Below are positions 13,137-46,309 of a DNA stretch of 64,000 nt, one piece after another. The first letter of the stretch is position 1. Each line of letters begins with the position of its first letter. A model generated the notes under the pieces. That model did no database searches. It was not told where the DNA came from and saw nothing but the letters and a program-made list of their open reading frames with translations. Source of the DNA: Minisyncoccota bacterium (GTDB lineage Bacteria; Patescibacteriota; Minisyncoccia; Phycocordibacterales; JABAAK01); assembly GCA_965204115.1 (NCBI GenBank), contig OZ241963.1, positions 532,622 through 596,621 of the forward strand, read 5' to 3'. The translations under genes were made by a program, and so were the position numbers.

Positions 13137-13385
13137 ATGGAAGAGAAAAAGAGTAAAAAAACACTCCGTGGGACTGTGGTTTCAGTGAAGATGCAGGACA
13201 CCGTTGTGGTGGCGGTTGATCGGTATGTGAAGCATCCCCTCTATGGCAAGTATCGTCGGAAAACGAAACGGTATAAGGTGCACTGTCCGGGGAACACCGC
13301 TGCGGTGGGTGAGCAGGTGACGATAGAGTCGTGCCGTCCTGTTTCCAAGGAAAAGCATTTTCAGATACTCCCTCAAAGCGTATGA
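13137..13385 (+). CDS. rpsQ: 30S ribosomal protein S17
   Basis: LRGTVVSVKMQDTVVVAVDRYVKHPLYGKY, S17 OB fold. Confidence 0.9.
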   Translation: MEEKKSKKTLRGTVVSVKMQDTVVVAVDRYVKHPLYGKYRRKTKRYKVHCPGNTAAVGEQVTIESCRPVSKEKHFQILPQSV

Positions 13386-14120: not shown

Positions 14121-14122
14121 CT

Positions 14123-23863: not shown

Positions 23864-23897
23864 TGAAACCCGGTGTCTGTGTTATAGTAAGTATGTT

Positions 23898-28927: not shown

Positions 28928-29293
28928 TTAGAATCCGAGGGCGGTGCCGTATAGAATGCTCAGCCTGCCGGTGAGGAGTGCTGGCGGGACGGTTGGGACG
29001 GTGCAATCAATTATCGTGCCGATCAATCCGAGTGTGGTTACACCGACTGATGGCGACAGGTAATTTTCTCGTATTGTCCAGCTTGGGTAGAGGTAGATGA
29101 TCGGTGTCGCACTATTTGCTTTTAGTGTCCAGAAGCCGGGACCCATTGATGAGACACATGGTATTGAAAATACTATTAATCCGCCTTCCGGACTGGTGAA
29201 AAAGGCACTTGCCACCGGGACGGTGATACTGCTGATTCCCACCATGAGTGGTATGAGTACTCTTGCGACTTTTATCGCCAGTTTTTGCTTCAT
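28928..29293 (-). CDS. Possible small hydrophobic membrane protein (about 122 aa), convergent with rsmA
   Basis: Distal part of minus-strand ORF 28928..29611, trimmed to the MKQKL start. Function unknown. Competes with plus-strand ORF 29097..30179 in part of the range. Confidence 0.3.
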   Translation of the reverse strand: MKQKLAIKVARVLIPLMVGISSITVPVASAFFTSPEGGLIVFSIPCVSSMGPGFWTLKANSATPIIYLYPSWTIRENYLSPSVGVTTLGLIGTIIDCTVPTVPPALLTGRLSILYGTALGF

Positions 29294-29315
29294 AACTGTC
29301 AGATATGATACCATG

Positions 29316-30179
29316 TATACAGTGAGGCGAGTTTTTTTAATTATCATTGCGGTGTTTTTTGTGGTATTGCTTGCACTTTCTTTGTTTTTACTGTTTCGCT
29401 CTGATGACGATGAGGCGGTCCTTTTCCTTGAGACCCATACCGTATTATCCGGCGAGGCAGACAGCGACGGTGATGGTGTTCCGAATTGGCTTGAAGAGAT
29501 TACCAACTCTGATGCGCTGAATGCGGAATCTTTTCCGTACAATAAAGATGTTGTGCGAGCGCGGAAGAACACTGCTGATGCGCTGCTGTATGCAGGTCCG
29601 GGCGATTTCACCGAGGAGATTATTCAGCGGTTTCTTTTTGATGTGAGCGGGTCTGCTTCTGTTACGTCGGAGGAGCGGACTCGGTTTGTTGACGAGTCGT
29701 CCGCTTATTTCCTGCAGATTGTTGAAGAGAAGGGCTTGCCTGATGTTGTTTTGTCTGTTGATGACACGGTTTCTCGGCAGGCAGTTTTGCACAGTTTTGC
29801 TTCAGCGATGCGGCGGTTTTCCGGTGCGAAGAAGCCCATTGATGTTTTGGTTTTTGATGTTTTTTCAAAAAACGCTTCAGTAACAGAGGATGCTCGTCAG
29901 GCGCGTCTGTCCTGTGATTACACCCTGCAAATCTTACCTCGGAAGGTTCCGCAGGATGTGTACACGCCGTATTACCTTGTGCTTGAGCGGGTTACCTATC
30001 TGTGTGAGGCACTGACGGTCGCACTTACTTCTATTACCGCTGAAAATTTCTTTTATGCCCTGCGATTGGTGGGGGTAGGGAAGCTGTTTGAGCGGGCTGA
30101 TGAGGGCGCTGATGATTCTACTAATCAGTTTGTTCTTGCGGTTGAGCAGGTTGTTCAATTATTAGAGCAATCGCCGTAA
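29316..30179 (+). CDS. Membrane-anchored protein with a thrombospondin-type-3-like Ca-binding motif (DSDGDGVPN)
   Basis: N-terminal TM at the ATG (MYTVRRVFLIIIAVFFVVLLALSLFLLF). Start chosen at the internal ATG of ORF 29097..30179. Confidence 0.5.
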   Translation, partial: YTVRRVFLIIIAVFFVVLLALSLFLLFRSDDDEAVLFLETHTVLSGEADSDGDGVPNWLEEITNSDALNAESFPYNKDVVRARKNTADALLYAGPGDFTEEIIQRFLFDVSGSASVTSEERTRFVDESSAYFLQIVEEKGLPDVVLSVDDTVSRQAVLHSFASAMRRFSGAKKPIDVLVFDVFSKNASVTEDARQARLSCDYTLQILPRKVPQDVYTPYYLVLERVTYLCEALTVALTSITAENFFYALRLVGVGKLFERADEGADDSTNQFVLAVEQVVQLLEQSP

Positions 30180-30209: not shown

Positions 30210-33200
30210 ATGTTTTCTTTTAATGACCAGCGTGGCGGTTTTGCCACCATCGCCATTGTCGGGGGTGTTGCTGTTGCGGTTGTTGCCGGGGGTGTGTTTT
30301 ACTTTTTGCGCAGTAGCCCGCCTGAAGTTGATACTGTTTTGAAGGATGATTCGGCTACTGTTTTCGGTGAGGAGACCGTTTTGTCTGTTGATGCGGAGGA
30401 TGCGCTGCTTCGGAGTTTGCCTCGCGGGCGTACCAATGACTATTGCTCGTTACTCGGATTGGAGCGGGAGGCCTGTGCGGGTGGTGCCGAGGGTGTGTGC
30501 CGGGACTTGTTTGGCAGCTGTAGTATTGACGTCTCCCGTGACTCCTCTGACACTATTCGGCAGTTTGCCGAGGCCTGCTTGGTTTTGCGAACTGCGGAAG
30601 GGCGGTCGCAGTATTTTGCATGGCTTGATAGCGGTGATCCGAAGCCGTTTCCGCTTTATTACGCCATATTCGGACTGGAGGAAGGTGCGTTTAACCAGAA
30701 ACAACTCACTGATGCGTACCAGGTACTATTGGATTCATACTTTTCCACTGCTTCCTGCGACAATCGTGAGGCACTTCGTCTTTTGTCTGAGGGGTATCTT
30801 TTGCTGAGCGATGCTGCCGGTCGGTCTGAATACGATGTGTGGCTGAATGGCACCGGCAGTGATCCGTTTCCCTTATACTACGCGCTTCTTGGGCTGCGTA
30901 GAGACACTTTTACGCAACAAGATTCTGCTGATGCATACAAGAAAACCTTGGATCAATATCTTTCCGGATACTACGGCAACAATACTGAGGTCTTGCGCCT
31001 CTTGACCGAAGCGCATATGATATTGTACGATCCGTCATCGCAGTCCGCCTACAGCACACTTCTTGATGGCGGTCTGTCATCTTCTTTTTCCGATATTTCT
31101 CTTGATTTGGGTGGGGACAATCTGTTTTCTGCCCTCAGTGATCTTAACCTTTCACCCACTCATCTCGGTACTGTTTTCGGCTCCTTAGACCTGTCTTCTG
31201 CTGAGCTTGTAAGTGCTGCTGCCACGCTTGATTTCTCCTCCACTGATTTAGGCGGCTTTGTTGGCGGACTCAATCTTTCTCCGGGCAATCTCAGTGCCGT
31301 TCTGAGCGATTTTAGTATCTCTCCGGATAATCTTGGCGCTGCTCTTAACGGTCTTAATCCTTCCACTGATGACCTGAGTAACATTCTGAGTGACCTTGAT
31401 CTTTCTGCCGCTGAGCTGAGTATTGTTTTGAGTGACCTTGCTCTCCCCGCCGATGAGCTGAGTACCGTTCTGGGGGATCTTACTATACCTCCAACTGACC
31501 TGCAGACCTTATTTACCAATTTCGATATCCCTTTTCTTGGTGAGGGTACTCCGTTTCCCGGTGTTGCCGTGCCGCCCGATGATTTGCCGGATGATGCTGA
31601 TGATTTACCGGCGGTTGCTATTTCTCCGAAGCTTGTTCAGATTGGTGTTAAGAATGACGGTGTTCAGCCATCATTTCTCGTGGAGGTTACGAAAGGTGGT
31701 TCTCCGTACGCCCCTGATACGCCGATTACAGTTGCTCTGGAGTGTGAGGATGCCGTTCGTCCGGCTAGTCAGCCGACCACTTCTTTGATTTTAAGCGATT
31801 TGCCGGAATCTGTCCTGCTCTCTGCCAGCAAAGGTACGACCGGGGATTTAGTTCGAGCCCCTGGTGTTACCGGGTATGTTGTATGTGCTGTTGTTGCTGA
31901 CACTAATACAGATCCGACTTACATACTTGGCTCACCCTCCTCTGCAAGAGTTACTATTGTTGGAGGTTCGTCCGGTCCGCCTTGTGATAGGCCGTCGTGC
32001 CCCGGTGATCCGACCAGCGGTCCGTTGCCTACTGTTTCCATTGCCGCTGTTGAGCCGCGTGTTGCCAGCGGTGATGATGCGGTGTTTCGTGTTTCTTCCA
32101 GTTCCGATATTGTCGGGTCGTTGCATGTGCAGTATTCATGCAGTGCCAATACCAGTGTCGATAACACTTATCTCGGCGAGAATGATGTTACGATTCAGGG
32201 TGGTTCCGGGCAGTTTGCTACTACCATCACCCTGCCGACGAATGAGGATGTTTCTGATACCGTTACATGTGAACTACTTGATAGTGTAAAAAATGCGTAT
32301 AGGATTTTAGGTCGTGATGCTTCTGTCGGAGTCGGGTTGTTGGGATCAGGGGACATTGAAGGGTATGATCCTGCATTGCCGACCGTCTCCCTGATAGCGT
32401 ATCGCACGACACCGGGCAATTCTGGTAAGTTTTCAGAGAAGGTTAGCAGTACCGTTGTTGGTGATACGGACACTTATATTGGACTGGTGATTGATGACCC
32501 TGAATCAGATTCTTTTGGTGATGAGGATCCGGACTCCCGGAAGGAGGTTTCTGACGGTGAGTTGTATGTGCTGTATGTGACAGATTTTGGTAATACCATT
32601 TCTGTGCTGCCGGGCGATGGAGGGACTGTCACTGTTGGCATTAGTAAGGATAGGGAGGTTCCGGACTCGGAGCCGCTGTTTAATGCTGTCGCCGATACCG
32701 TTGTTGCCAAGCATTCAGGGTATGGGAGTCCTCCCACCGCTCTGCATCACAGTGCTGGGGGTGGTAGTCGTTGGAGAGGTAATTTTGCCGAGGGCAGTAT
32801 CTTTATTGAAATAACCGCAGATCATCGCGTTATTATGCGGAATGATGTCGAGGGAAATGTGATTGTTTGTGGCTATGATCGCGGTGTTCTGTATTGTGCG
32901 ACTTATGAGGATGCAGATAGATTTGCCCCGAGAAATATCTTTGTTACCGCGGAGTGTCGTAAAGAATTTTCGGATCGTGAGAGAAGTCGGGAGGACTCCG
33001 GTCTTATCACAGGCGGTCGGCGCGTGGTTGATCGCGGTAGTGAGCCGTCGTATGCGTTGCCGGTGTTCGGGTATGCTCCTGTTCGTCGCGGTGATCCCGA
33101 GGGTGACTTATACACCTTTATTCGTTCTGACGGGACTTACGATGCCCTTGATGAAGATGCAGGTCCTGATTCGGTGTTTAGTTCGATCCGTATCGATCCT

Positions 33201-36200
33201 TTTCTTGAGCCGGATACGACTTTTTCCTGTAGGATTTCCGGTGGCGGGGCAGAGGATGGGTATAATGTCGGCACTCCTTATGCGGAAGTGCAGGTGCGAC
33301 CGCGTGCGACGATATCTCTCGGTGTGCATGGTGCGCAGCGTGTTGCTGATGAGTCAGGGCTTCTCGGTGAGCCGGTTGCGCATCTTGATCGTCGTCAAGC
33401 GGAGTATAATTTTGATTCTGACAACTCTGACTTTTCTGATTTTCCCACCGGCCCAACCGGAGGTAGAGAGATTCCTGGTGTTGATGCATCGTTTCGTGAT
33501 GTGTCCGCCAGTTTAGGGGCGTCTCTTAGTGTTGGGTTTCTCACTTCTTTTGGTGCGTGTGCCGGTTCCTCTCTCTTGAATCGAGGAATCAGTGAGCTTG
33601 CTAATAGAATTGGTCTTGGCGGTTTTGGTGCTGTTCCGGTTAGATCTGCAAAACTTGAACTCAAGGAGTGTGTTTTGGATTCCGCTGTTTCCGGCGCTGT
33701 TTTGGAGGTGCTTACTGCTGTTGCGAGAGATTATATCACCTGGGCATCTGAGGGATTTGAGGACAAGCCGCTGTTTGTGAAGAATCCGACCACTTTTTAT
33801 AAGAACCTGCGCGATGATGCAATCGGTCGTGTTATTGATCGGAGTGGTCTTGGGTTTCTCTGCGATATCGGCGTTCCTAATTTTGAAGCGTACGAGGCAA
33901 CGCTTAAGATTAATTTGCAGCAGCAATATCTCGGCATCGCTACTGATCGACCGAGGTGTACCTATAGTGATTTGGCAAATAACCTTGAGGATTTTTATGA
34001 TGATGCTTCAGATGTTTTGCGTGATCTTGATCCGGAGTATTTGAGAAGCTTTGGTTTTACTATTGACGGCTCTGTCAGAACGCAGAACGCAGGCACTTTT
34101 CAGTTTCCGCCGTCTGATGGATTTACCGGCAATCAGCTTGATGCGTTCTCGGCGAACCTTGATCGCGCTATGAAGAAGACGGAGAATAGTAGTAATTTTC
34201 TCCTGGCTGTTTCCCAGGTGGATAGTGATATTCGCGAGGCGCGGCAGGAGTTTGATGCCGCTGTGAAGCCGGTTTCTCAGATTTTTAATCCGAATGACCC
34301 GACATCAATTGGTGCGTTTCGGGAGTGTAATGAGACAGAGAATCCGGAAGGTGATGTTGACTGTTTTTCATTGAATGTATCCGGTTCTAAGATTACTGAA
34401 ATGACCGGTAAGGGGATTAGCTCGCTTTCCGACCGATTGTTGCAGGTTGATGAGTTTGGGGAGTTTGGTCAGTTGGTTGGTCTGGCGGTGAACGCGACTT
34501 CTGCCGGCTTGATGAAGAAGTATTTAAGCAGGGGCTTTGGGCATTCAGTAGACAGAGAGACCGCGGATCTGTTGAGTAATATTGAAAAAGATATTGATGC
34601 CTCTCTCAGGCCGTCAAGTGCTCGTAAAGTTAGTTTGAGTGAGAACTGGTGGTCGGTGTTTTTTGAAAGAAACGCGTTTTATAATGACTTGCTGAATGCT
34701 GAGATGTATGCGAATGATGTCTTTACCTTATTGCAGTATATTGGGTCCGGTTTGTACCGGGATCCGAAGCGAATTGGTGATAAGGCATATATCCCTCCTG
34801 TCCGTCCTTATACCGCCTTTGATACTTTGCGCCATGCGAGTACGAGTGGTACACCAGGGCAATTTCCCATATTTTCGTATGGCAATTTGATTGGTTTTTC
34901 TTCCGCACAACTTACGAGGAATTATGCTAATTTTTATCACGCTCCAGATATTAAGAGTGCTGTTGAGGAGCGTGCTTTTGAGCAGCTTAATGGTAATAAT
35001 GGATGGGCGAAGGAGCGACTCCAGCATATTTTTAACGGCTGGGTCAGTGATGAATCCGGAGAGGAGCAAGGGTATCGAAAGATGGTGGCGATTGAGCGGT
35101 TTGATGATGCGCATCGTTTTTTGTCTAATGGTGAGGCGCGTTCAGCGTACAATGCTTTTCTCGGCAAGATGGGGGACTTTATTGAGAATACGCCGTATGA
35201 TCGGCAAGGCACGAGTAATTGGTGGAAGAAGAGTATGAAGAATATGCCAGACGATGTGAGAGAAGATATAGCCGGCCCTGGTCCTTCTTTGCCGGGACAT
35301 TTAGCAGGACTTAAGGATACAGATTCGCTCACCGACGATCAGAGTGTTCACTATCCCGAGGACCACACCGATTTTTCAAAACGTGTTTTCGGCGTCGGCT
35401 CTTCGGAGGAAAGGACTTGTGGTAATACACCCTGTGCTGATTGCCTGTTTCGTCGTTCAAGAGCGGCGTCAGGGAGTGCCGCGACGTGTACAACGGAAGG
35501 AGGAACAACATACCCTTGCATCAATGATATTGCGGGAAATATAGGACAGTGTATATATTTTAAGGGCGGTACTTCTGATCTTAGTGCTGGTGTTTGTGGT
35601 CTTTCGCTTACGGATCCGAGGTTTGAAACCCATTGCGGGGTCTGCTGGCCTCACAATCTCAATGGCAATACCGATCAAAATAAGTTTACTGCGTTTACGG
35701 GTGAGGTTGAGTACTATTGTCCTGCGGGAGGGACTTCCGAAAAGTTGCTGGATGCTCAGGGGGACCTTGTTACCATCAAACAATTGCGTAAGATTTACGA
35801 AGCAACATTGGCGGTGCATATTCGTTTAGTTGGAACGCTTGATGAGTATCGAGGCGCTCCACTGCTCAGCTCGCCTATTCATACTTACCGCAGAGAGATT
35901 TTGGATGCTTATCGGGCAGATCCTGATTCTGATGATCTTGATAGTGGCGGCGGGTGGGCAGTTGTGCAGCAGGAAACTTTAAAAAAGTTTCGTGACGGCA
36001 CAATGCAGGTGTATATTCCTCTTGACGATGACGAGTTTGGTGAGCAGGAGTATTTGACTCTTTTGAGTAGTGTTGGGTGTGTGAAAGCGGATGCGATTAC
36101 TTTTCAGGACGGTGCTTTTATCAGAAGTTATCAGGAGATGAGTTGTGTTTTAGGAACAGTTTTTCAGGATCAGGCGTACTTTGTACTTCGTCGAGAGAAT

Positions 36201-37031
36201 GATGATCTCAATAAGCGGCGTGTTGTGTATCTTGCTTGCGGGTATGATGATGATTCTGATGATGATTCTGTCGCTCCCGGCCAGCAGTCAGATGCAGACA
36301 AGCGTTTCCGGTTCAAGAAGGGCGTGGAAGGAAACCCAAGACCACTTCCGCCGGTGACCCTGGAGAAGGGGGAGGATTCGGTTATCTTTCCGGTGCCGAA
36401 ACCGATTTGGTCGCCGTTTGATCTTGGTGACCGCACTCCTTATAATAAGGATGACACTCCTCCTAACTACACTCCATTAACCGGTCAACGGATTCGTTGC
36501 TCTATAGATTTGAAGAGGACTCAGGTGAGTGCTGATGTTGCTGTGGATACGCTTACCCAAGTTGTCACTGTCTCGGAGCATCTGTCAAATGATGGTTCTC
36601 CCGTCACTTTTCACTCTCTGGTTCGGAATACTTTGGGGGGTATTGTTACCTCTCGTCTTGAGGATCGAAAGGATATGGTTGCTGAAGCACTGTTTTATAC
36701 CTATGTTTGGGGGTGGTATACCGGATTTATAGAGATGCCGTATTACTCTATTCAAGGACTGTTATCTAACCCGCCGGTAATTTTGACGGATAGCAAGGTG
36801 GCGGTGACGGCGAATATTCAGGGTAATCAGGAGGCGTTGCGACGGTATCGTTTTTTGAGTTCGCTGTTTGCCAATGAGAGTGATTCGCGGTTTTCGTCAA
36901 AAAACTTTGGTTTTCTTACTCCTGCTGAGGCGCGTGCTGAGTACGAGCATTCTTTTGACGATCGGTTTAATGGATATTTTGGACGCGCGCTCGGAGAATT
37001 TTTTGAGCTGCTCCCCAATATGCATCAGTAA
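30210..37031 (+). CDS. Giant (2273 aa) membrane-anchored surface protein. One N-terminal TM, three degenerate J-domain-like repeats lacking HPD, about nine 14-aa tandem repeats, then a large Cys-containing domain of unknown function
   Basis: Single uninterrupted 6.8-kb ORF. TM GFATIAIVGGVAVAVVAGGVFYF. J-like repeats PLYYALLGL...DAYKKTLDQY...LRLLTEAHMILYD span nt ~30432-31065. 14-aa period xxVLSDLxLSxxEL spans nt ~31092-31530. Confidence 0.75.
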   Translation: MFSFNDQRGGFATIAIVGGVAVAVVAGGVFYFLRSSPPEVDTVLKDDSATVFGEETVLSVDAEDALLRSLPRGRTNDYCSLLGLEREACAGGAEGVCRDLFGSCSIDVSRDSSDTIRQFAEACLVLRTAEGRSQYFAWLDSGDPKPFPLYYAIFGLEEGAFNQKQLTDAYQVLLDSYFSTASCDNREALRLLSEGYLLLSDAAGRSEYDVWLNGTGSDPFPLYYALLGLRRDTFTQQDSADAYKKTLDQYLSGYYGNNTEVLRLLTEAHMILYDPSSQSAYSTLLDGGLSSSFSDISLDLGGDNLFSALSDLNLSPTHLGTVFGSLDLSSAELVSAAATLDFSSTDLGGFVGGLNLSPGNLSAVLSDFSISPDNLGAALNGLNPSTDDLSNILSDLDLSAAELSIVLSDLALPADELSTVLGDLTIPPTDLQTLFTNFDIPFLGEGTPFPGVAVPPDDLPDDADDLPAVAISPKLVQIGVKNDGVQPSFLVEVTKGGSPYAPDTPITVALECEDAVRPASQPTTSLILSDLPESVLLSASKGTTGDLVRAPGVTGYVVCAVVADTNTDPTYILGSPSSARVTIVGGSSGPPCDRPSCPGDPTSGPLPTVSIAAVEPRVASGDDAVFRVSSSSDIVGSLHVQYSCSANTSVDNTYLGENDVTIQGGSGQFATTITLPTNEDVSDTVTCELLDSVKNAYRILGRDASVGVGLLGSGDIEGYDPALPTVSLIAYRTTPGNSGKFSEKVSSTVVGDTDTYIGLVIDDPESDSFGDEDPDSRKEVSDGELYVLYVTDFGNTISVLPGDGGTVTVGISKDREVPDSEPLFNAVADTVVAKHSGYGSPPTALHHSAGGGSRWRGNFAEGSIFIEITADHRVIMRNDVEGNVIVCGYDRGVLYCATYEDADRFAPRNIFVTAECRKEFSDRERSREDSGLITGGRRVVDRGSEPSYALPVFGYAPVRRGDPEGDLYTFIRSDGTYDALDEDAGPDSVFSSIRIDPFLEPDTTFSCRISGGGAEDGYNVGTPYAEVQVRPRATISLGVHGAQRVADESGLLGEPVAHLDRRQAEYNFDSDNSDFSDFPTGPTGGREIPGVDASFRDVSASLGASLSVGFLTSFGACAGSSLLNRGISELANRIGLGGFGAVPVRSAKLELKECVLDSAVSGAVLEVLTAVARDYITWASEGFEDKPLFVKNPTTFYKNLRDDAIGRVIDRSGLGFLCDIGVPNFEAYEATLKINLQQQYLGIATDRPRCTYSDLANNLEDFYDDASDVLRDLDPEYLRSFGFTIDGSVRTQNAGTFQFPPSDGFTGNQLDAFSANLDRAMKKTENSSNFLLAVSQVDSDIREARQEFDAAVKPVSQIFNPNDPTSIGAFRECNETENPEGDVDCFSLNVSGSKITEMTGKGISSLSDRLLQVDEFGEFGQLVGLAVNATSAGLMKKYLSRGFGHSVDRETADLLSNIEKDIDASLRPSSARKVSLSENWWSVFFERNAFYNDLLNAEMYANDVFTLLQYIGSGLYRDPKRIGDKAYIPPVRPYTAFDTLRHASTSGTPGQFPIFSYGNLIGFSSAQLTRNYANFYHAPDIKSAVEERAFEQLNGNNGWAKERLQHIFNGWVSDESGEEQGYRKMVAIERFDDAHRFLSNGEARSAYNAFLGKMGDFIENTPYDRQGTSNWWKKSMKNMPDDVREDIAGPGPSLPGHLAGLKDTDSLTDDQSVHYPEDHTDFSKRVFGVGSSEERTCGNTPCADCLFRRSRAASGSAATCTTEGGTTYPCINDIAGNIGQCIYFKGGTSDLSAGVCGLSLTDPRFETHCGVCWPHNLNGNTDQNKFTAFTGEVEYYCPAGGTSEKLLDAQGDLVTIKQLRKIYEATLAVHIRLVGTLDEYRGAPLLSSPIHTYRREILDAYRADPDSDDLDSGGGWAVVQQETLKKFRDGTMQVYIPLDDDEFGEQEYLTLLSSVGCVKADAITFQDGAFIRSYQEMSCVLGTVFQDQAYFVLRRENDDLNKRRVVYLACGYDDDSDDDSVAPGQQSDADKRFRFKKGVEGNPRPLPPVTLEKGEDSVIFPVPKPIWSPFDLGDRTPYNKDDTPPNYTPLTGQRIRCSIDLKRTQVSADVAVDTLTQVVTVSEHLSNDGSPVTFHSLVRNTLGGIVTSRLEDRKDMVAEALFYTYVWGWYTGFIEMPYYSIQGLLSNPPVILTDSKVAVTANIQGNQEALRRYRFLSSLFANESDSRFSSKNFGFLTPAEARAEYEHSFDDRFNGYFGRALGEFFELLPNMHQ

Positions 37032-37079: not shown

Positions 37080-37766
37080 TTAGGGAAGGATTTTGGCACA
37101 GGCGAATGCCGTGTCTAGGCTGAAGTTCCTGTCGACTATCTTTTCCCTGGATATTTGATATCCTTCTCCAACAAAATCCAGCCCGAGATATCTTCCTATA
37201 ATGAGTGTCCATTCACTTTTTTCCCACCCCATGAACATCCCGTCTTCCTGTGAAAGCAGGGCGAAGAATCTGGACATTTTTTTATTCGCGGTCTCTGTCT
37301 TTCCCGGCTGATCGGTGAAATCTAATCTTATCATCACCGCCTCTTCCAGGGTTAGCGGCCTATACCCCTCTGCCCCGAAGTGGCTTCTTATCTTTTCTAT
37401 TGTGGGCGTCCCTGTCATTCCCGCCTCACGGAGCGTTAGGACAGTGATCTCAGTTTCGCCCGGAATTTTGGACATTGGCATATCTATTATTCTCATTCGC
37501 AGTGATACGCTGTAGGCATGGAAGTTTTCTCGGTTCCATAGGGTGTCTACTATATCTTCCCCCGTTTCATACACACCTGTCCTCACTATTATGGTTCCAT
37601 CCATCCAGTGCGGTACCCAATCCGGCCACTCAGACGATGGGGCTTGCTCTTCTGTCACCATTGTCTCAGCCACTATGGACCCGTCCTCTTCAATGTCGGG
37701 TGAGCATCCGACCAGGGAAAACATTGATACCATTGTTAGCAGTGCTACTGTCGTTGCAACTCTCAT
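37080..37766 (-). CDS. Lipoprotein of unknown function
   Basis: Signal peptide with lipobox LVGCS. 228 aa. Confidence 0.6.
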   Translation of the reverse strand: MRVATTVALLTMVSMFSLVGCSPDIEEDGSIVAETMVTEEQAPSSEWPDWVPHWMDGTIIVRTGVYETGEDIVDTLWNRENFHAYSVSLRMRIIDMPMSKIPGETEITVLTLREAGMTGTPTIEKIRSHFGAEGYRPLTLEEAVMIRLDFTDQPGKTETANKKMSRFFALLSQEDGMFMGWEKSEWTLIIGRYLGLDFVGEGYQISREKIVDRNFSLDTAFACAKILP

Positions 37767-37957: not shown

Positions 37958-40900
37958 GTGTATATGATGTTTGCTTTTATCAGGCGGCGGTGGGTTGTGT
38001 TCGGCACACTTTGTTTATTGTTGCTGTGTTTGGTTTTTGTGCCGCAGTTTGTGTTTGCTAATGTTGCTGATGGAATTACCAGCGTTATTAATGCCGTGGT
38101 CGGAGGTTTGATGAAGGGGCTTGAGTGGCTGGTCTCGCTGTTTCAATTCTTGTTTTTGCAGGTTATTCAATTTACCATTCTTGATTTTGCAAATCACTGG
38201 AAGGATAAGGGACTTCTTTCTGATTTTCGGGTGGTGTGGCAGGTCCTGCGGGATTTTGTGAACCTGTCCATTGTTGTGCTTTTCGTTCTTACCGCCATGA
38301 TGACTGTTCTTGACGCGAAAGGGCAATTCGGCTTTCACCGGAAGGGGTTGTTGTATTTGATTGCTGCTGCTGTTTTTGTGAATTTCAGTGCTTTCTTTAC
38401 TTTGCTTGTTATTGATGTTTCGCATATTCTGTTTATGTTGTTTTTTAATGCACTTGATGTGTCAACATTAGGATCGTTCTCGCCGTTCTCCGGGTATAGT
38501 GAGGTTTTGGGTAGTACTGCTGATGGCATTTTCAACATCATTCTCGGCGTTATTGCGATTGTGGTGAATTGGTTTATCATACTCGGCATTCTCTATTTCT
38601 GTATCATGTTGATTGAGCGGTATATTATTGCCATGTTTCTTGTACTTTTTTCGCCGTTCGCGGCACTCGGGTTTTTTACCAACATGTCCGGCGGTGGTAA
38701 CCCTCTTGCCGACAAGTTTTCCGGTGTGTATAAGATATGGAGTGAGCGGCTTGGCTATGTGTTCACCATGCCGGTCATACTTATCGTTGGGTTTGCGCTT
38801 CTGTTGGTTTTGTTCCGCGGGGCGTTGGGTCAGATGGTTGATCCTGATAACTTTGTTAAGTTGATTGGTGTTAACACTCCGGAGGGGCGGGGTATTCTCC
38901 TGCAGCTTATGCTTGCGAGCGTTGTGTTGATACTTGGCATTTTCAAGGTCGGTGAGTTTGCGAAGAATGCGAATATTCATCCCGCTATTGCTAATAAGTT
39001 TAAGTTTGGGGAACTGGCGTCCAAGCTGGTTCCAAAAGCGTCATCTGCTCCGAAAGCGGTACTTGGTGCTGTTCGGTCGATTAAGAACCCTGCCGGTCGG
39101 GGTGTCTTTGGTTATAAGCAAAAGATCTATGATCAGCGGAAGGAGTGGCAGCAGGCGCAGGATAGGGGGGAGAAGACGCCTTGGATCGCAAAGGTGCCCG
39201 GCGTCGGGAAGTCGCTTGATGTGGGGGGTAAAGTGCGGCGAGGCAGGCAGCGTGCTCAATCTATTGTTCGCGGCGCTCAGGTAGTTGCGGGCGGGCAGTC
39301 AGGTCGTAATGTTGACTGGCAGAATGCTGAGGCAAATGAGGACGCGAGAATCTGGGACATCATTCGTAACCCCACCAGCACTAGAGAGCAAAAGGAAGAT
39401 CTTTTGACGCAGGCGCTTGATGATAAGAGCAATGTTACGCTTAATGAGCAGCAGACCGCTGAGCTTGCGAGGAACATTGAGTTGCACCCACTGATTTCAT
39501 CATTGAAGAAGGGGGTTTCTCAGGGTACTTTCAGGCAGATACGAGGGGATGCGGAAGTACGGGCAAAGGAGCTTGCTGTTGAGAAGGATGCTATTGCCGC
39601 TGAGAAGGGCACCCCTCCTCCTGAGTATGAGAAGAGACAGCAGGAGCTTCACACTGCTGAGATAGATTATAAGGGCGCAGAGCTGGCGTATGATGATTTG
39701 ATGCGGCAAAAAAATTTTGCACAGGATGAGTTTAATGCCGCGAAGGAGGCATTTGAACAGACGGATGCGTATAAGAAGTTTAATCGAGATCTTGACAGTA
39801 AAATGCAGGACTTTGAGTCCGGCAAGATAGCTTGGGAGGATGTTGAAAATTTTGAGACCACTTTTTATGAGGATGCTGCAACTCGAACGCAAGCCGGTTC
39901 TGTCCGGCAGCAGAAGCTTGCTGTATTGGAGAAGATGAAGGATTCATTGCGTACGGCAAAAGATACAAAGAAGTCCGCGGACAATGTACAGCAGGGTGCC
40001 AAGAAAGCCTTTGAGGTTGAGGAGAGCAAGCATTATAATGCTATACGGCAAAAGGAAGACGCTAATACCAGTGCGCGAGGGGTGGTTACGCAGACATTTT
40101 CTAACCTTGCGACGAATACTGCCGCAGGTACCTCTGTTTCAAGAAATGCAGCAGCGGTGTTTGACCCTGATGCATTGAAGGATGCGCGTGCGGAGCGGGA
40201 GTCCGTTGCTGCTCCTATTGATAAGCAATTTCAGAATATGAAAAATGATTATGCGAAGTCGTCCGCAGTCGCTTTGGAGGACCTTAAGGCAGAAGAGAAA
40301 ACTATTGCGGAGAAAAACGCTGAGGAGAATGCGGATCTTCTTGAGAAGCGGGAGGAGTATGCTGATGAGGAGATGCAGAATCCTAACCCCAATGTTCTTA
40401 CGAGTCGCATGTTTGAGCTTCAGGAGGAGATTGATGCTTTGGAGCAGGAGTCCGCCGCGCGTCGTGAGCGATCTTTGGCGATTAATGCGGAGAGAGGTCG
40501 TATTAGGTCTATCAGAAAAAATCTTGAGAAGCAGGATGTTTCTGATTCTGAGAAGCTTGCCGTTCTTGGTGAATCTGTCAAGAGTGCGAAGTCATTTGTG
40601 CAGGGTGGGACGCAGTATCTTACTGCTCAGCTGAAGGCTGTTGATGATAAAATGACTGCGCTTGAATCTGTGGCGAAGCAGCGGGGTACTGATGTGAATA
40701 GCAATAGTGAGTACACAGATCTGCGGGATGAGCAAGAGCGCATCACCAATCGTATTGGGTATATCGGTCGTGTCGGTGGCAGTATTGCGGAGGTGGGTGA
40801 GGCCTTAGATGAGCAGAAGGAGATCCTTGAGAGTCCGGAATATACCGACGCTCTTGGTCAGGAACAGTATCTCTCGCTGTTCAGTGTGAAGACCTTACTG

Positions 40901-41188
40901 CGTGATATTGAGTCGGCTCTGGAAAGGCGTAAGAAGGCCTTTACTGAGAAGGAAGAGAAGAAGCTGGCGAAGAAGATGAAAGAGCAAGGGAAGAAGGGCG
41001 CTCCGAAGGTTCCGAAGAACGCTCATAAGGAGGATCCTGAGTGGAAGGTTCTTGACCAGCAGAAGAAGAATCTCAAGAAGATACAGGCGGAAGGTGGTGC
41101 CTCTGCTGAGCTGCAGCAGGCGGCCGTTAAGGCGGCAGAGCAGCTGGCAAAGCAGCAAGCGCAGAAGAAAAAACAGAAACAAAAATAG
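37958..41188 (+). CDS. VirB6/TrbL-like polytopic membrane protein with a long K/E-rich coiled-coil C-terminal extension (1076 aa)
   Basis: N-terminal signal-like helix, then at least six TM helices over about 330 aa, then about 700 aa of charged coiled coil. Sits immediately upstream of the VirB3/VirB4-like genes. Confidence 0.6.
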   Translation: MYMMFAFIRRRWVVFGTLCLLLLCLVFVPQFVFANVADGITSVINAVVGGLMKGLEWLVSLFQFLFLQVIQFTILDFANHWKDKGLLSDFRVVWQVLRDFVNLSIVVLFVLTAMMTVLDAKGQFGFHRKGLLYLIAAAVFVNFSAFFTLLVIDVSHILFMLFFNALDVSTLGSFSPFSGYSEVLGSTADGIFNIILGVIAIVVNWFIILGILYFCIMLIERYIIAMFLVLFSPFAALGFFTNMSGGGNPLADKFSGVYKIWSERLGYVFTMPVILIVGFALLLVLFRGALGQMVDPDNFVKLIGVNTPEGRGILLQLMLASVVLILGIFKVGEFAKNANIHPAIANKFKFGELASKLVPKASSAPKAVLGAVRSIKNPAGRGVFGYKQKIYDQRKEWQQAQDRGEKTPWIAKVPGVGKSLDVGGKVRRGRQRAQSIVRGAQVVAGGQSGRNVDWQNAEANEDARIWDIIRNPTSTREQKEDLLTQALDDKSNVTLNEQQTAELARNIELHPLISSLKKGVSQGTFRQIRGDAEVRAKELAVEKDAIAAEKGTPPPEYEKRQQELHTAEIDYKGAELAYDDLMRQKNFAQDEFNAAKEAFEQTDAYKKFNRDLDSKMQDFESGKIAWEDVENFETTFYEDAATRTQAGSVRQQKLAVLEKMKDSLRTAKDTKKSADNVQQGAKKAFEVEESKHYNAIRQKEDANTSARGVVTQTFSNLATNTAAGTSVSRNAAAVFDPDALKDARAERESVAAPIDKQFQNMKNDYAKSSAVALEDLKAEEKTIAEKNAEENADLLEKREEYADEEMQNPNPNVLTSRMFELQEEIDALEQESAARRERSLAINAERGRIRSIRKNLEKQDVSDSEKLAVLGESVKSAKSFVQGGTQYLTAQLKAVDDKMTALESVAKQRGTDVNSNSEYTDLRDEQERITNRIGYIGRVGGSIAEVGEALDEQKEILESPEYTDALGQEQYLSLFSVKTLLRDIESALERRKKAFTEKEEKKLAKKMKEQGKKGAPKVPKNAHKEDPEWKVLDQQKKNLKKIQAEGGASAELQQAAVKAAEQLAKQQAQKKKQKQK

Positions 41189-41236: not shown

Positions 41237-41440
41237 GGACTTCAATAGTCCCTGTCCTGCCGTGCGGTCAGTTTACTGACCACAAAAATGGACATACTGA
41301 AGTTCTTTAAAAGTGACCTTCCTTATTAGTGCCCGCAAGGGGTAGCTGCTTCGGCGGCATGGGAGGTCCATAACTATCTGATAGAGTTACGCTTGCCCAA
41401 CCGGTTTCCATAAGACTGGTTGGGCATTTGTTATTTTTAT
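41237..41440 (+). ncRNA. Structured leader or small RNA of about 200 nt between the consensus promoter and an intrinsic terminator, immediately upstream of the VirB3/VirB4-like genes (candidate attenuator, riboswitch or sRNA)
   Basis: Four hairpins: GGACT-tcaat-AGTCC, GGTCAG-TTTA-CTGACC, CCC-GCAA-GGG (GNRA tetraloop) and GCTGC-UUCG-GCGGC (UUCG tetraloop). Terminator GCCCAACCGGT/ACTGGTTGGGC at 41395..41425 followed by ATTTGTTATTTTTAT. No ORF inside. Confidence 0.4.
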
Positions 41441-41458
41441 ACGCTATACTGTGTTTGT

Positions 41459-41914
41459 ATGCGCTTTCAGGTTCCGCAAAATTTAGATGTGCCGGATACT
41501 ATTCTTTTGGGTTTGGATTTTAGGCAGCTGATTTACCTTGGTGGTGCTGCCGGACTTTTGGTGTTTTTGTTTCTGTTTTTTGGTATTTTGCCGACGGTCT
41601 TTATTGGTGGTCCGGTTGCTATTCTTGCGGGTTTTTTGTCGTTTTTTACCTATAATAACCAGAAGTTTGTCACGCTTTTTCAATCGTTGATACGGTTTTT
41701 TTCCCGGAAGAAGATGTATGTGTGGCGGCGTGGTACTATTGACGCAGCAGTGCGGCGCACAGCTAAGGAGGATGACTCCGTTGACGGGGAATTTGTGCAC
41801 CCGGACTCTTATTCGCAACGACAGCGGCTGGATAAGGTTCGTGAAGTGAGTGCCAATCTTGTTTTTTCTGATGATGGGGGTGACTCGTATGATGAGCTTG
41901 ATATTGTTCTATGA
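41459..41914 (+). CDS. VirB3/PrgI-like small 2-TM protein of T4SS-type systems
   Basis: About 150 aa with a two-TM hairpin (LIYLGGAAGLLVFLFLFFGILPTVFIGGPVAILAGFLSFFTY), directly before the VirB4 ATPase. Start chosen at the ATG downstream of the terminator; track start 41420 overlaps the terminator. Confidence 0.55.
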   Translation: MRFQVPQNLDVPDTILLGLDFRQLIYLGGAAGLLVFLFLFFGILPTVFIGGPVAILAGFLSFFTYNNQKFVTLFQSLIRFFSRKKMYVWRRGTIDAAVRRTAKEDDSVDGEFVHPDSYSQRQRLDKVREVSANLVFSDDGGDSYDELDIVL

Positions 41915-42531
41915 CTGCAAACACCACCACACAATCATTTGTTCCTTTGAAGGATATTCAAAATGGTATTGTTACCCGGGATGACGGTGTTTTGTGTGCC
42001 GTGTTGTTGGTTTCGTCTGTCAATTTTAACCTGAAGTCGGAAGATGAGCGGCAGGCCATTCTCTATCAGTTTCAATCTATCTTGAATTCGCTTGAGGTCG
42101 GTGTTCAGATTATTGTCCAGTCGCGACGGCTCAATATTAAGCCCTATCTGCAGTACCTTGAGGAGGTGTATGAAAAACAGACCATTGAATTGTTGCGTTT
42201 GCAGACGCGGGAGTATATTAACTTTATTTCTGATTTTACGGAGCGCAATGAGATTATGACAAAACAGTTTTTTGTTGTTGTTTCGTATTCCCCTGTTTCG
42301 TCCGGCGGTCTTGCCGGCGGACTGCCTTTTTTAGGCAAGAAGGAGGCGACATCGGAGCAAAAAATGACCGAGGAGCATGTTACGCAGTTGCTGCAGCGAG
42401 TTTCTTTTATCCAGAATAATATACGGGCATTAGGATTGCGAGCGGTGCAGCTCGGTACTGAGGAGGTGACTGAGTTGCTGTACAAGACCTTCAATCCGGG
42501 TGATACGCAGACGCCTCCTCCTGCAACTTAA
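41911..42531 (+). CDS. VirB4/TrbE/CagE-like ATPase, N-terminal domain fragment (206 aa) of a split gene
   Basis: VPLKDIQNGIVTRDDGVLCAVLLVSSVNFNLKSEDERQAILYQFQSILNSL matches the N-terminal CagE_TrbE_VirB region of Gram-positive-type VirB4 (PrgJ/TcpF-like). ATGA overlap with the upstream gene. Confidence 0.7.
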   Translation: MTANTTTQSFVPLKDIQNGIVTRDDGVLCAVLLVSSVNFNLKSEDERQAILYQFQSILNSLEVGVQIIVQSRRLNIKPYLQYLEEVYEKQTIELLRLQTREYINFISDFTERNEIMTKQFFVVVSYSPVSSGGLAGGLPFLGKKEATSEQKMTEEHVTQLLQRVSFIQNNIRALGLRAVQLGTEEVTELLYKTFNPGDTQTPPPAT

Positions 42532-42580: not shown

Positions 42581-44413
42581 ATGGGTATTTTTGATGCGTT
42601 TGGTGGCAAGAAGCAGGGGGATTCCTCAGTGCGTGCTGTTACTGAGGAGGATTTTATTCCTGAAGCTGCGTTCAGTCCGGCAACTATCGGCTTGCGGGAT
42701 GTTATCGCGCCGCCGGCTATACAAATAACTTCACGACATGTTGCTTTAGGGAGTAAGTTCGCCCGATCTTTTGCGGTGGTGTCATACCCGCGGTTTTTGA
42801 ACGAAGGATGGTTTTCTCCGGTTATTAACTTGAGCAAGGAATTTGATATCGCCATCTTTGTGCATCCGATGAATTCAAAAGATGTGTTGCGGAAGTTTCG
42901 GCGAAAAGTGGCGCAGGTTGAGAGTCAGATTATTGAACGGGAGAGCAAGGGGATGGTGCGTGATCCGAAGCTTGATACCGCACACCAAGATCTTGAGGAT
43001 TTGCGTATGAATATTCAGCAGGCGACTGAGCGGATGTTTGAGGTTGGGGTGTACATCACTATTTACGGTGAGACGGTTGAGGAAATCAATGAAGTTGAGA
43101 AAGATATGCGGTCGCTGCTCGAAGGGAAACTTATTTTTGTGAAGCCGACTGTCTTTCAGCAGGAGCAGGGGTTTCGGAGCACAAGCCCGTTCGGCACTGA
43201 TTTGCTTTCTATTCACACAAAGCTGAACTCTGAGCCGTTGTCAAGCTTGTTTCCGTTTATCTCTTTTGATTTGTCCGCTGAGAAGGGGATACTGTACGGT
43301 ATCAATCAGCACAATGCCTCACTTATTCTGTTTGACCGTTTTTCTCTGCCGAACTATAACTCAGTCACCTTCGCGACCTCCGGTGCAGGGAAGTCGTACG
43401 CCATGAAGCTTGAGGTGCTGCGATCGTTGATGGTCGGTGTTGATGTTATCGTGATAGACCCGGAGCGGGAGTTTGAGCGATTAGCGCAGGCAACGGGCGG
43501 TCGTTACTTTAATGTTTCATTGAATTCGGAACACCATGTTAATCCGTTTGATTTGCCACCGGTCGGTGAGGATGAGAATCCGTCCGATGTATTGCGCAGC
43601 ACGGTTATTAACCTTGTCGGTTTTTTTCGGGTGCTGCTCGGCGATTTGTCGCAGGAGGAAGAGTCAATTATTGATCACGCGATTCGTGAAACATATGCAT
43701 TGAAGGACATCACGATGGAAGGGGGTTTTGAGCATATTGATCCTCCGCTTATTTCTGACTTTGCGCTTGTGCTCGCGGGAATTGAGGGCGGTGAGCAGCT
43801 TGCTGAGCGACTCAGTCGGTATACAACCGGTTCGTGGGCCGGATTTTTGAATCAGCCGACCAACATTGATATCGGTCGGCGGTTTGTTGTTTTTTCTATA
43901 CGGGATATGGAGGATGATTTGAAGACCGCTGCTATGTATATCATTACGCGGTTTATTTGGAATAATATTCGGAAAAAATTGAAGAAGCGGCTGTTAGTGG
44001 TTGATGAGGCGTGGATTATGATGCAGTCGGGCGACACCGCTTCTTTTTTGTTCGGTTTGGTAAAACGCGGTCGGAAGTATTACCTCGGTGTGGGTACTAT
44101 TACGCAGGATGTCGGAGATTTTTTGCGGTCGGATTATGGTAAGCCGATATTGAATAACTCTTCTTTGATTTTGCTGTTGCGGCAGTCGGCGACTTCCATT
44201 GACCTGGTGCAGCAGACCTTTAACCTGACTGACAGTGAGAAGTACCTCCTCCTTGAGGCAGCGGTCGGTGAAGGGCTTTTTATTGCCGGTTTGAAGCGGG
44301 TTGCTATAAAAATCATCGCCTCTTTCACTGAGGATAAAATTATTACCACCGATCCGTCTCAGCTCCTTAATCAGCAGCGGGTTGTGCAGCAGCAGCCACT
44401 TGATGCGGTATGA
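42581..44413 (+). CDS. virB4: VirB4/TrbE-like T4SS ATPase, C-terminal ATPase part (610 aa)
   Basis: Walker A FATSGAGKSYAMK, Walker B LLVVDEAW. The TcpF/PrgJ-like middle region IAPPAIQITSRHVALGSKFARSFAVVSYPRF is also present. Confidence 0.9.
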   Translation: MGIFDAFGGKKQGDSSVRAVTEEDFIPEAAFSPATIGLRDVIAPPAIQITSRHVALGSKFARSFAVVSYPRFLNEGWFSPVINLSKEFDIAIFVHPMNSKDVLRKFRRKVAQVESQIIERESKGMVRDPKLDTAHQDLEDLRMNIQQATERMFEVGVYITIYGETVEEINEVEKDMRSLLEGKLIFVKPTVFQQEQGFRSTSPFGTDLLSIHTKLNSEPLSSLFPFISFDLSAEKGILYGINQHNASLILFDRFSLPNYNSVTFATSGAGKSYAMKLEVLRSLMVGVDVIVIDPEREFERLAQATGGRYFNVSLNSEHHVNPFDLPPVGEDENPSDVLRSTVINLVGFFRVLLGDLSQEEESIIDHAIRETYALKDITMEGGFEHIDPPLISDFALVLAGIEGGEQLAERLSRYTTGSWAGFLNQPTNIDIGRRFVVFSIRDMEDDLKTAAMYIITRFIWNNIRKKLKKRLLVVDEAWIMMQSGDTASFLFGLVKRGRKYYLGVGTITQDVGDFLRSDYGKPILNNSSLILLLRQSATSIDLVQQTFNLTDSEKYLLLEAAVGEGLFIAGLKRVAIKIIASFTEDKIITTDPSQLLNQQRVVQQQPLDAV

Positions 44414-44975: not shown

Positions 44976-45710
44976 TTATTCCCCCTTTTTGTTACTTTGG
45001 AGGATGTTTGCTACATAACTTTCCAGTTGGGCAGTGGTGAGGGAGCCGACGCTTTCAAAGAGCAGTTCGCCGTTACCGGAGATGAATTGGATGTAGGGTG
45101 TTTCGTCAATATTGAGTTCACGGACATCCTGTATTGCTTGTAGTGTTTGGGGAGCAATCTCTCTTCCTTCTTTTCTGCATTGCTCAACTTTGTCAAAAGG
45201 GATGTTGAGGCGTTTCATCAGCATTTTGTAGCGGTCGTTGGGGTACTCAATTTCCATTACGCCGCCGATGAGGGACTCCTCTATGAATTTCCATGCGGTT
45301 ATGCGTGCTTGTTCGCCGGCATGGAGACGGATGCATTCAAGTGTTTGTGCTTTTTTGACGGAGGTTTCGTTGATGTGAAACCCATTTCTCCACACCCATG
45401 CCACTCTGCCGGACACCCCCCAGTCGCTTTTGATGAGTGTCTTTGCATGCGGGTGAAATTCTTTGCAGTACGGACATTCCAGATCGCCGTACTCCACGAT
45501 GAAGAGGTCTGCTTTCGGATTGCCGAATATGAGATCAATTTTTTTGTTTACTGGCCTGAAGTAGCGGTCATCACGGGTGTCTATCATCACTTCTACGGCG
45601 TTGCTATGCTGTACAAGAAGTACGGCACTCACGAGCAGGGCGATTGTGATGATGAGCACATCAACAGCGATTTTGTATCCACCTCTCTTTTGTGCTTGTG
45701 TTGCTTCCAT
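44976..45710 (-). CDS. DsbA-like thiol:disulfide oxidoreductase (thioredoxin fold), membrane-anchored
   Basis: CPYC active site (DLECPYCKEF). N-terminal TM anchor. Start at the internal ATG (MEATQ...). Confidence 0.8.
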   Translation of the reverse strand: MEATQAQKRGGYKIAVDVLIITIALLVSAVLLVQHSNAVEVMIDTRDDRYFRPVNKKIDLIFGNPKADLFIVEYGDLECPYCKEFHPHAKTLIKSDWGVSGRVAWVWRNGFHINETSVKKAQTLECIRLHAGEQARITAWKFIEESLIGGVMEIEYPNDRYKMLMKRLNIPFDKVEQCRKEGREIAPQTLQAIQDVRELNIDETPYIQFISGNGELLFESVGSLTTAQLESYVANILQSNKKGE

Positions 45711-45733
45711 ACAGTGTTCATTATATCGTGAAA

Positions 45734-46309
45734 CTAGAATAAGCTGACGGATGCATCTTCCACATTCTCTTCTCTTTTCCACTGTGAGGTGTCTATCGGT
45801 ATGGTGTGTATTGATCCGAGGTCGTTGTACAGGAGCTCCTCATTTTTCAGCGCGTAATCAAAGATGTCTTTTGTGATACGCACATCATCAATGCAGTACT
45901 GTTTCACCTCTTCAACCTTTCCTTGCTTCCACCATTCCACTGCCTGCAGTCCGTCGCCGCTTTTATTGATGCCGAGTGTTCCTTCGGCGATCCAGTCAAG
46001 GCGTATTCGTCTGCCGAGTGATTGACGGACACTTTCCAGGAGGTCAATGCTGTCGTACTCTTTTGTTAAATCCATCGGTGCGTATTTGTTCAGCAGAGGG
46101 GTGTCAAAATGGTTGTTGTTGAATCCGATGAGTGTGTCAATGTTGCGCATCACTTCCCAGAGATCCGGCAGTGTTTCCTGTGTGTATGCGGTGTATGCGT
46201 CGTCGGTGTAGCTGTATACCGCGATGACGGCGAGTGTAAGGTCCTCGGGGTTGCGTTTCTCGTTGTTAAACACATCTGAGGTTTCTATGTCAAAAACAAG
46301 TCCTTTCAT
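45734..46309 (-). CDS. DEDD-family 3'-5' exonuclease (RNase T/DnaQ-like)
   Basis: FDIETS Exo I motif. Later HFD and D motifs. Confidence 0.7.
   Translation of the reverse strand: MKGLVFDIETSDVFNNEKRNPEDLTLAVIAVYSYTDDAYTAYTQETLPDLWEVMRNIDTLIGFNNNHFDTPLLNKYAPMDLTKEYDSIDLLESVRQSLGRRIRLDWIAEGTLGINKSGDGLQAVEWWKQGKVEEVKQYCIDDVRITKDIFDYALKNEELLYNDLGSIHTIPIDTSQWKREENVEDASVSLF

Follow-up and report, generated by a model that had tools for sequence, protein, structure and literature searches.

VirB5, a component of type IV secretion systems (T4SSs), is a Sec-exported helical protein that is encoded beside virB6, caps or docks on VirB6 and reaches the pilus tip (PMC12857230), and in Bacteroides conjugative transposons a DUF4141 protein is encoded beside traJ (PMC10434189). 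In Patescibacteria, the T4SS is essential for epibiotic growth of the sole genetically tractable species (PMC10633639); a survey of these bacteria found VirB2-like pilins in the T4SS clusters and no adhesin, and reported a VirB5 homologue in one genome only, the VirB4 of which falls in the mating-pair formation T (MPF-T) clade, outside the Patescibacteria clade (PMC12102498). The stretch of 64,000 nucleotides (nt) analysed here, referred to as the window, covers positions 532,622 to 596,621 of the forward strand of contig OZ241963.1 (assembly GCA_965204115.1) from a Minisyncoccota bacterium, and carries, beside a T4SS-like gene cluster, an intact open reading frame (ORF; 30210..37031, plus strand, ATG start) for a giant protein of 2273 amino acids (aa). 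With moderate confidence, we read this giant as a membrane-tethered, length-variable extracytoplasmic stalk or fibre of the Paceibacterota T4SS-like apparatus that presents a contact module. The T4SS cluster and the J-domain were known already; in the literature consulted on Patescibacteria T4SSs, we did not find described the core family to which the giant belongs, its fixed slot in the cluster, the giant tethered variant, or the apparently extracellular J-like modules devoid of the HPD tripeptide.

The core family and its slot in the T4SS-like cluster

At every locus examined, the genes were arranged in the order of UvrD, KsgA, a protein of ~300-360 aa with a TSP3 motif, the giant or a short core gene, and a VirB6-like polytopic protein; wherever the sequence reaches far enough, PrgI, a TraC-like/TrsD gene and VirB4 come next. 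The loci examined comprised the window, L001 and L005, which encode giants, L003, L004, L006 and L007, which encode short forms, and L002, for which only ORF sizes were compared. A link between the giant and the T4SS-like module had been proposed in a preliminary description of the sequence from their adjacency, and the same slot 5′ of the VirB6-like gene in all of these loci makes it stronger than that. No second copy of the core was found within the window. Sharing both this slot and the core, the giant is orthologous, by position as well as by sequence, to a conserved component of the T4SS cluster of Paceibacteria.

The core (aa 1085-1530, 33462..34799, on the plus strand as are all other parts of the giant given below) was delimited by its invariant columns and its relatives, and a search of 1.84 billion cluster representatives with its profile retrieved at least 1455 proteins (E ≤ 1e-3), this count being one of representatives at 50% identity. 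These relatives mostly have 450-750 aa (about 500) with the domain near the N-terminus; those that are named are all 'hypothetical protein', and almost all belong to Kaiserbacteria, Paceibacterota or Patescibacteria. At their N-termini, the short homologues carry Sec signal peptides of the canonical kind, AxA sites included, and they have in common with the giants an invariant W, G, F, P and F and two Cys, two more Cys being near-invariant. Within the giants, the core contains dozens of invariant residues, six invariant Cys and the peak of column identity (0.7-0.8 at aa 1160-1240), and it features a Gly/Ala-rich hydrophobic segment (aa ~1100-1125), a VPVxx...KEC motif, and the motifs DYITWAxEGFxxxPLFxxNPTxFY, IDRSGLGFLC and DEFGE. 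A tblastn search of a short homologue against 72,556 plasmids yielded no match; characterised conjugative plasmids thus have no recognisable member of the core family among their components.

The giant form is found only in a narrow set of contigs of metagenome-assembled genomes (MAGs). A database search yielded 13 full-length homologues of 1884-2496 aa with 29-79% identity, plus one identical database entry, giving 14 giants in total; the homologues are all on metagenome-assembled contigs of up to 1.1 Mb, and the sole species-representative genome among them is a Candidatus Paceibacterota MAG. Aligned with the short T4SS-cluster component, the giant is such a component to which two parts are added, namely an N-terminal module of ~1080 aa, composed of a signal anchor, three J-like domains, ten 14-aa helix repeats and beta-rich modules, and a C-terminal extension of ~740 aa, which holds a hypervariable Cys-rich insert. 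Signal anchor, juxtamembrane acidic motif, core and C-terminal domain recur in anchored relatives of 1100-1240 aa, but the stalks of these differ and are made of other J-like, Pro-rich, beta-rich or pentapeptide repeats; such as pentapeptide/decapeptide repeats in P0019, three near-identical J-like units in P0024, and duplicated modules of ~95 aa with Pro-rich PTIPIIPTIAPISPTAPGVT repeats in P0028. Given these differences, the stalk is interchangeable, and J-like domains are but one kind among its spacer modules.

Stalk modules, topology and the C-terminal part

The giant starts with a signal-anchor transmembrane (TM) helix (aa 11-33, 30240..30308), for which the Kyte-Doolittle mean of 2.32 over aa 14-32 marks the sole strong hydrophobic helix of the protein, in line with the single N-terminal helix noted at the outset; its summed Hessa dG is +0.4, and its N and C flanks have net charges of +1 and -2, respectively. 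Throughout the anchored forms (20 of 20), the N flank carries +1 to +3 and the C flank -1 to -7, a positive-inside pattern that points to an N-in/C-out signal anchor. For the second hydrophobic segment, the Gly/Ala-rich one of the core, a summed Hessa dG of +3 to +5 was calculated in all 14 giants, and on this value a second TM helix at aa 1100-1125 of the giants was rejected.

Behind the anchor lie three J-like repeats, each of roughly 68 aa: domain 1 (aa 74-142, 30429..30635) is Cys-rich and lacks HPD, domain 2 (aa 146-214, 30645..30851) has FST at the HPD site, and domain 3 (aa 219-289, 30864..31076) has LSG there. The family profiles of all three align end to end with solved J-domains (positions 2-65), at E-values against the J-domains of the PDB of 1.3e-7 (domain 1, profile A5), 4.1e-7 (domain 2, profile A7) and 1.4e-6 (domain 3, profile A6). 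For the giant alone, PDB sequence matches of the repeats are weak and the match to Pfam DnaJ (PF00226) is sub-threshold (aa 150-209, E = 1e-3, 19.6 bits), query-only DnaJ scores being 19.6-26.4 bits under a gathering cutoff of 27.8 bits; across the family, 9 of 14 N-termini matched DnaJ, with a best E-value of 1.2e-12. In the AlphaFold model of aa 40-470 (predicted local distance difference test, pLDDT, 77.5; predicted template modelling score, pTM, 0.74), three J-type helical bundles are formed, with AlphaFold2 (AF2) pLDDT values of 80-93 across the three domains, and Foldseek found local matches to Thermus DnaJ (4j7z_F, probability 1.00, TM-target 0.54) and DNAJB13 (8j07_V, probability 0.99), of which the database E-values of 0.26-0.41 are not significant. 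Thereby the HPD-less J-domain-like repeats of the preliminary description are borne out by the family profiles, and the structure prediction that it had called for models them as J-like helical bundles.

Judged from these alignments, the three repeats are genuine descendants of J-domains in which HPD has uniformly been lost. The HPD tripeptide, located between helices II and III, is needed for the stimulation of Hsp70 ATPase activity. The HPD column reads HSD or HAD in the three most divergent giants (P0012-P0014), and GPD, GPG or GPQ in the anchored relatives of 1100-1200 aa.

The J-like domains are followed by an array of 14-aa repeats (aa 303-442, 31116..31535; consensus xxLsxvLsdLdLSp), which had been recognised before with about nine copies; the array holds, and ten copies in exact register were counted. 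Its lag-14 identity is 0.36, versus 0.107 ± 0.026 for shuffled sequences, a value attained by 0 of 10000 shuffles. AF2 models one helix of ~10 residues per repeat, ten helices in all with pLDDT 85-90, which suggests a solenoid of stacked single helices. Tandem Repeats Finder on the DNA did not detect the array, which is too degenerate, indicating that the repeat is conserved solely at the protein level, and the homologues have near-perfect 14-aa arrays with lengths differing several-fold, indicating that the copy number is evolutionarily labile. Searched against the PDB, this LS-repeat region also retrieved a pentapeptide protein, a designed coiled coil and the factor V B-domain, all of which we attribute to repeat composition and disregard.

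The C-terminal ~1800 aa, which contain 30 of the 36 Cys of the giant, had been regarded as having no recognisable domain. This holds for the curated libraries, as the searches gave no Pfam, NCBIfam or PDB sequence match to this part, and DnaJ and DUF4141 were all that was retrieved with the giant, the core and 46 of the short homologues; it does not hold insofar as the core defines a large family of its own. Foldseek searches with the C-terminal models, that of the C-terminal domain included, found no fold match in the PDB or in BFVD (viral). The first segment of this part consists of two tandem, probably beta-rich modules (aa ~465-600 and ~605-745, 31602..32444), which were found by hhalign self-comparison to be mutually homologous (probability 92.7%, E = 4e-7), each opening with LPxVSI and holding a conserved Cys pair; then comes a further conserved Cys-containing region (aa 746-1084, 32445..33461), identified from family conservation and the invariant Cys 916 and 1007, which leads to the core. 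Behind the core lies a helical region (aa 1531-1736, 34800..35417; AF2 pLDDT 75-90 for aa ~1485-1750) with an invariant RF..(12)..R..Y..F motif at aa 1630-1650. This motif (window 35097-35159), written out as RF..AYRFLS....R..YN.F, resembles helices III-IV of J-domains (AYEVLSD..KR..YD) and may be the remnant of a fourth J-like unit; the full-length family profile gave no J-domain match at aa 1630-1650. Next, the variable Cys-rich insert (aa 1737-1837, 35418..35720, 10 Cys), delimited by conservation and Cys column patterns, shows the lowest conservation in the giant (0.17-0.25), and is missing from four homologues and enlarged in two. The protein ends with a conserved alpha/beta domain (aa 1838-2273, 35721..37028; AF2 pLDDT 76-94 for aa ~1835-2060), and similar C-terminal motifs (IYEAT...H; G.LSA..AE..Y) were seen by eye in the anchored relatives P0022-P0030. 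A polymorphic toxin was rejected because the C-terminus is conserved.

Across the giants, the cysteines of the pairs C79/C89, C512/C559, C592/C597 and C887/C896 share their presence and absence; likewise, among the 46 short homologues, the KEC Cys and a Cys ≤60 residues upstream are both present in 26 and both absent in 18, with only 2 discordant. Such paired gain and loss is, at the level of sequence, the signature of disulfides. Taken together, five sequence observations, i.e. the signal peptides of the short homologues, the flank charges, the dG values, the Cys pairs and a DsbA-like neighbour, point to an extracytoplasmic location of the J-like domains and so support their previously proposed position at the surface; we infer that everything past residue 33 of the giant is outside the membrane and held stable by disulfides. 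To our knowledge, there is neither Hsp70 nor ATP outside the cytoplasm. Lacking HPD and placed in such a compartment, the J-like domains presumably could not serve as Hsp70 co-chaperones; the loss of HPD would make sense there, with a structural role as the simplest reading, and the domains probably act as structural spacers outside the cell.

Relation to VirB5 and competing explanations

By gene order and N-terminal alignment, the core family occupies the position of VirB5, with some members sharing its N-terminal signature; the order in pTi, for comparison, is virB4-virB5-virB6. Pfam DUF4141 was matched by three short homologues at the signal peptide and mature N-terminus with 31.5, 28 and 17.4 bits, the highest score being that of P0259 (...AHAQYVVTDPGNT), which exceeds the 30-bit cutoff, and in alignment A9 it was matched by 2 of the 46 short homologues. 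DUF4141 is the only Pfam match of the authentic Agrobacterium VirB5 (...ARAQFVVSDPATE) as well, and is precomputed on many VirB5 proteins. Filing the core family as VirB5 was rejected, since profile-profile comparison found no whole-protein homology, and PDB sequence searches with the core and the short homologues gave no match to VirB5 structures or others.

If the giant is a tethered stalk that presents a contact module, its N-terminal helix would retain it in the epibiont membrane, and the stalk would combine three J-like bundles braced by disulfides with a helix-repeat solenoid that varies in length and with the beta-rich modules, the J-like domains acting as rigid helical spacers and the 14-aa array setting the stalk length. 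The core would associate with the VirB6-like platform or the pilus, as VirB5 does in diderm systems, while the variable Cys-rich insert and the C-terminal domain would contact the surface of the host or partner cell. We infer this function, host interaction included, from the comparisons above.

A number of results weigh against this explanation. The AlphaFold model of the core is poor (pLDDT 30-60 for aa 1085-1480), and Foldseek with this poor model provided no fold-level link of the core to VirB5, adhesins or other folds. The giant has no DUF4141 match, and its VirB5-type motif is internal and degenerate (VPVRS); hhalign of the whole family (A9) with a VirB5 alignment reached a probability of 0.1%, and that of the most VirB5-like subset (A11) covered 27 N-terminal residues only, with a probability of 28% and a pairwise E-value of 6e-4. 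The second hydrophobic segment has a dG of about -0.5, which is TM-grade, in P0028 and P0030 and keeps alternative topologies alive, and the extracytoplasmic location is itself derived from heuristics. In addition, no VirB2-like pilin gene was identified in the window, and it is awkward that the membrane tether would sit 1100 residues ahead of a module supposed to ride on the pilus tip.

Among the alternatives, the one with the best prospects, although still unlikely, is genuine but strongly diverged homology of the core family to VirB5; the family would then supply a subunit of the pilus tip or stalk, and in the giant an anchor and a stalk would have been fused to such a VirB5. The conserved position directly 5′ of VirB6 would fit with this, and so would the Sec signal with an N-terminus of the AQ-x-V-V-T-D type, which matches DUF4141, above the cutoff in P0259, as that of authentic VirB5 does, the hhalign alignment of the N-termini, the dominance of helices in the predicted core, and the VirB2-like pilins known from Patescibacteria T4SS clusters (PMC12102498) together with a weak T4SS_pilin match in L004. 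However, the similarity spans ~27 residues that overlap the signal peptide and leaves the profile body unmatched, the core-family proteins are 2-10 times as long as VirB5, VirB5 has nothing that corresponds to their four conserved Cys or their WINSGFxGxPAF and FLCSP motifs, and Foldseek, with the poor model, gave no TraC or TrwJ match. We consider it improbable to a higher degree that the giant is a generic giant adhesin or cell-envelope protein merely lying beside T4SS genes, or a secreted effector or toxin: its slot is kept across proteins down to ~20% identity at every locus examined, it is the sole core carrier in the window, its C-terminus is conserved and not polymorphic, and the signal anchor at its N-terminus speaks for export by Sec with retention and not for T4SS translocation. 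In favour of this alternative are the repeat-rich modular build, the variable Cys-rich insert, the lack of a domain tying the giant mechanistically to the T4SS, and another large surface protein nearby (FG-GAP/peptidoglycan-binding, 1314 aa).

The lowest probability of all is given to a two-pass or inverted topology, in which the N-terminal module of ~1070 aa with the J-like domains would be cytoplasmic, aa ~1100-1125 would form a second TM helix and only the core would lie outside, and in which the J-like domains would bind DnaK or clients at the base of the T4SS. In its favour, J-domains usually reside in the cytoplasm, all forms keep the second hydrophobic segment, which reaches TM grade in P0028 and P0030 as mentioned and aligns with the post-signal hydrophobic segment of the short homologues, and distant homologues keep the H and D of HPD (HSD/HAD); against these stand the TM1 flank charges, which favour N-in in 20 of 20 proteins, the segment 2 dG values of 14 of 14 giants, the co-varying and invariant Cys pairs of the N-module, and the absence of an intact HPD from every J-like repeat. 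Moreover, the co-variation of the segment 2 Cys with that of KEC implies a disulfide and not a membrane-buried residue.

A bolder proposal, to which we assign less probability than to the diverged VirB5 and more than to the generic adhesin, sees in the core family the missing host-contact subunit or equivalent of VirB5, in the giants a tunable tethered stalk, and in the Gly/Ala-rich segment a membrane-insertion element. This segment, behind which come long helices modelled with low confidence, would be held to the first core helix by a disulfide, and would engage the host membrane and open a conduit for the epibiont's exploitation of its host; if so, the J-domains would represent a rare case of a chaperone module turned into a disulfide-stabilised extracellular building block. 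Returning to the tethered stalk, the core family offers a concrete, testable candidate for the missing extracellular contact component of the Patescibacteria T4SS, and comparison of the giants separates its constant parts, namely the core and the C-terminal domain, from the variable ones (the length and composition of the stalk, and the Cys-rich insert). Extracellular structural J-like modules, if they are so placed, would be a use of the J fold beyond those known so far.

Genomic setting and comparison with described systems

Directly upstream of the giant gene, a membrane protein of 360 aa (29097..30179, plus strand) was identified by a DSDGDGxxxWxE (TSP3-type) motif, and its positional equivalents have faint or weak TSP3_bac matches. 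An origin of the giant by fusion with this TSP3-like gene was rejected, as the latter is still present 5′ of the giants. Downstream, the gap that separates the giant from the VirB6-like gene holds a gene for a 228-aa protein with a lipoprotein-type signal (…MFSLVGC; 37080-37766, minus strand); in L005 this gap is occupied by three minus-strand genes, and in L001 by one plus-strand gene. The VirB6-like polytopic membrane protein (37958..41188, plus strand, 1076 aa) has no Pfam match, and was recognised by its alignment to the L004 protein (24% identity over 267 aa, E = 2e-6), which has a weak TrbL_3 match. It is an 'extended VirB6', with a polytopic domain of ~330 aa followed by ~700 aa that are hydrophilic, charged and by eye coiled-coil-like; its equivalents have ~1070 aa beside other giants and 656-814 aa beside short forms. 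PrgI (VirB3-like; 41420..41914, plus strand; Pfam PF12666, E = 1.1e-7) follows, then a 206-aa protein assigned to the TraC-like/TrsD gene by position (41911-42531, plus strand), which does not match PF26593 while its positional equivalents in L001, L003, L004, L006 and L007 do, and a VirB4-type ATPase (42581..44413, plus strand; P-loop_TraG E = 1.2e-22, and AAA_10). The DsbA-like neighbour, a membrane-anchored DsbA/BdbD-like thiol-disulfide oxidoreductase (44976..45782, minus strand; Thioredoxin_4 E = 3.6e-10, with a TM segment and CPYC), is encoded 60 nt past the end of the T4SS-like cluster on the opposite strand and fits the many paired cysteines of the giant.

Two other loci showed peculiarities. 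In the short-form locus L007, a bAvd / 23S_rRNA_IVP gene (13931-14305) lies between PrgI and the TraC-like gene; bAvd is an accessory protein of diversity-generating retroelements, and no reverse transcriptase was seen in the L007 stretch. In L002 (OY764332.1, Paceibacterota; 6201-13426), the giant is present as two ORFs of 650 and 1734 aa, which are in different frames and 69 nt apart; a frameshift or a faulty assembly could account for this, as could a true split close to where stalk and body meet.

The window is ordinary chromosome, with genes for UvrA, EF-Tu, ribonucleotide reductase, RecG, UvrD, KsgA, HisRS, MurG, GluRS, pyruvate kinase and PilB, the last being a PilB-type T2SSE ATPase with an MshEN domain at 57902-59680. 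GC skew is positive in 31 of 32 bins of 2 kb, the cumulative skew climbing monotonically outside one bin, and with most genes on the plus strand this indicates that the window lies within one replichore. UvrD and KsgA, adjacent in other loci, are separated in the window by the 1314-aa protein (23829-27773, plus strand) with FG-GAP repeats, a peptidoglycan-binding domain and He_PIG; the stretch at 24-26 kb is the only high-GC part (0.59) of the window and has negative GC skew.

With regard to described systems, the repeats resemble the J-domain of DnaJ/Hsp40 (PF00226) in their full-length alignment (E ~1e-7 to 1e-6) and modelled helical bundles, whereas the giant differs from canonical J-domain proteins by its lack of HPD, its three tandem copies, its conserved cysteines and their placement after a signal anchor, in a probably extracytoplasmic part of a protein with the core of secreted homologues. 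VirB5, TrbJ and Bacteroidetes TraI (DUF4141) are comparable in that the gene lies directly 5′ of a VirB6-type gene and the product is exported by Sec, with a signal peptide and AQxVVxD N-terminus in a subset of the short homologues and a predicted helical core as further VirB5-type likenesses; unlike VirB5 (~220 aa), however, the core-family proteins have 500-2500 aa and two conserved Cys pairs, and the giant is membrane-anchored. The adhesins of Gram-positive T4SSs (PrgB/aggregation substance, PrgC and TraO) are likewise large repeat-containing surface proteins of a monoderm-type (MPF-FATA-like) cluster, which presumably mediate cell-cell contact. The giant has neither a C-terminal LPxTG (it ends with ...FFELLPNMHQ) nor a polymer-adhesin domain, weak DnaJ being its only Pfam match, and unlike the PrgB adhesins of the LPxTG type it would be anchored by the N-terminal TM helix; no PrgB-like adhesin was found in Patescibacteria (PMC12102498). 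Finally, the core-family component is not among the subunits of the Patescibacteria chromosomal T4SS named by Wang et al. 2023 (PMC10633639) or Quinonero-Coronel et al. 2025 (PMC12102498), while the cluster that houses it agrees with those T4SSs in having KsgA nearby, no relaxase or coupling protein, and the same set of VirB6-like, PrgI/VirB3, TrsD/TraC-like and VirB4 proteins.

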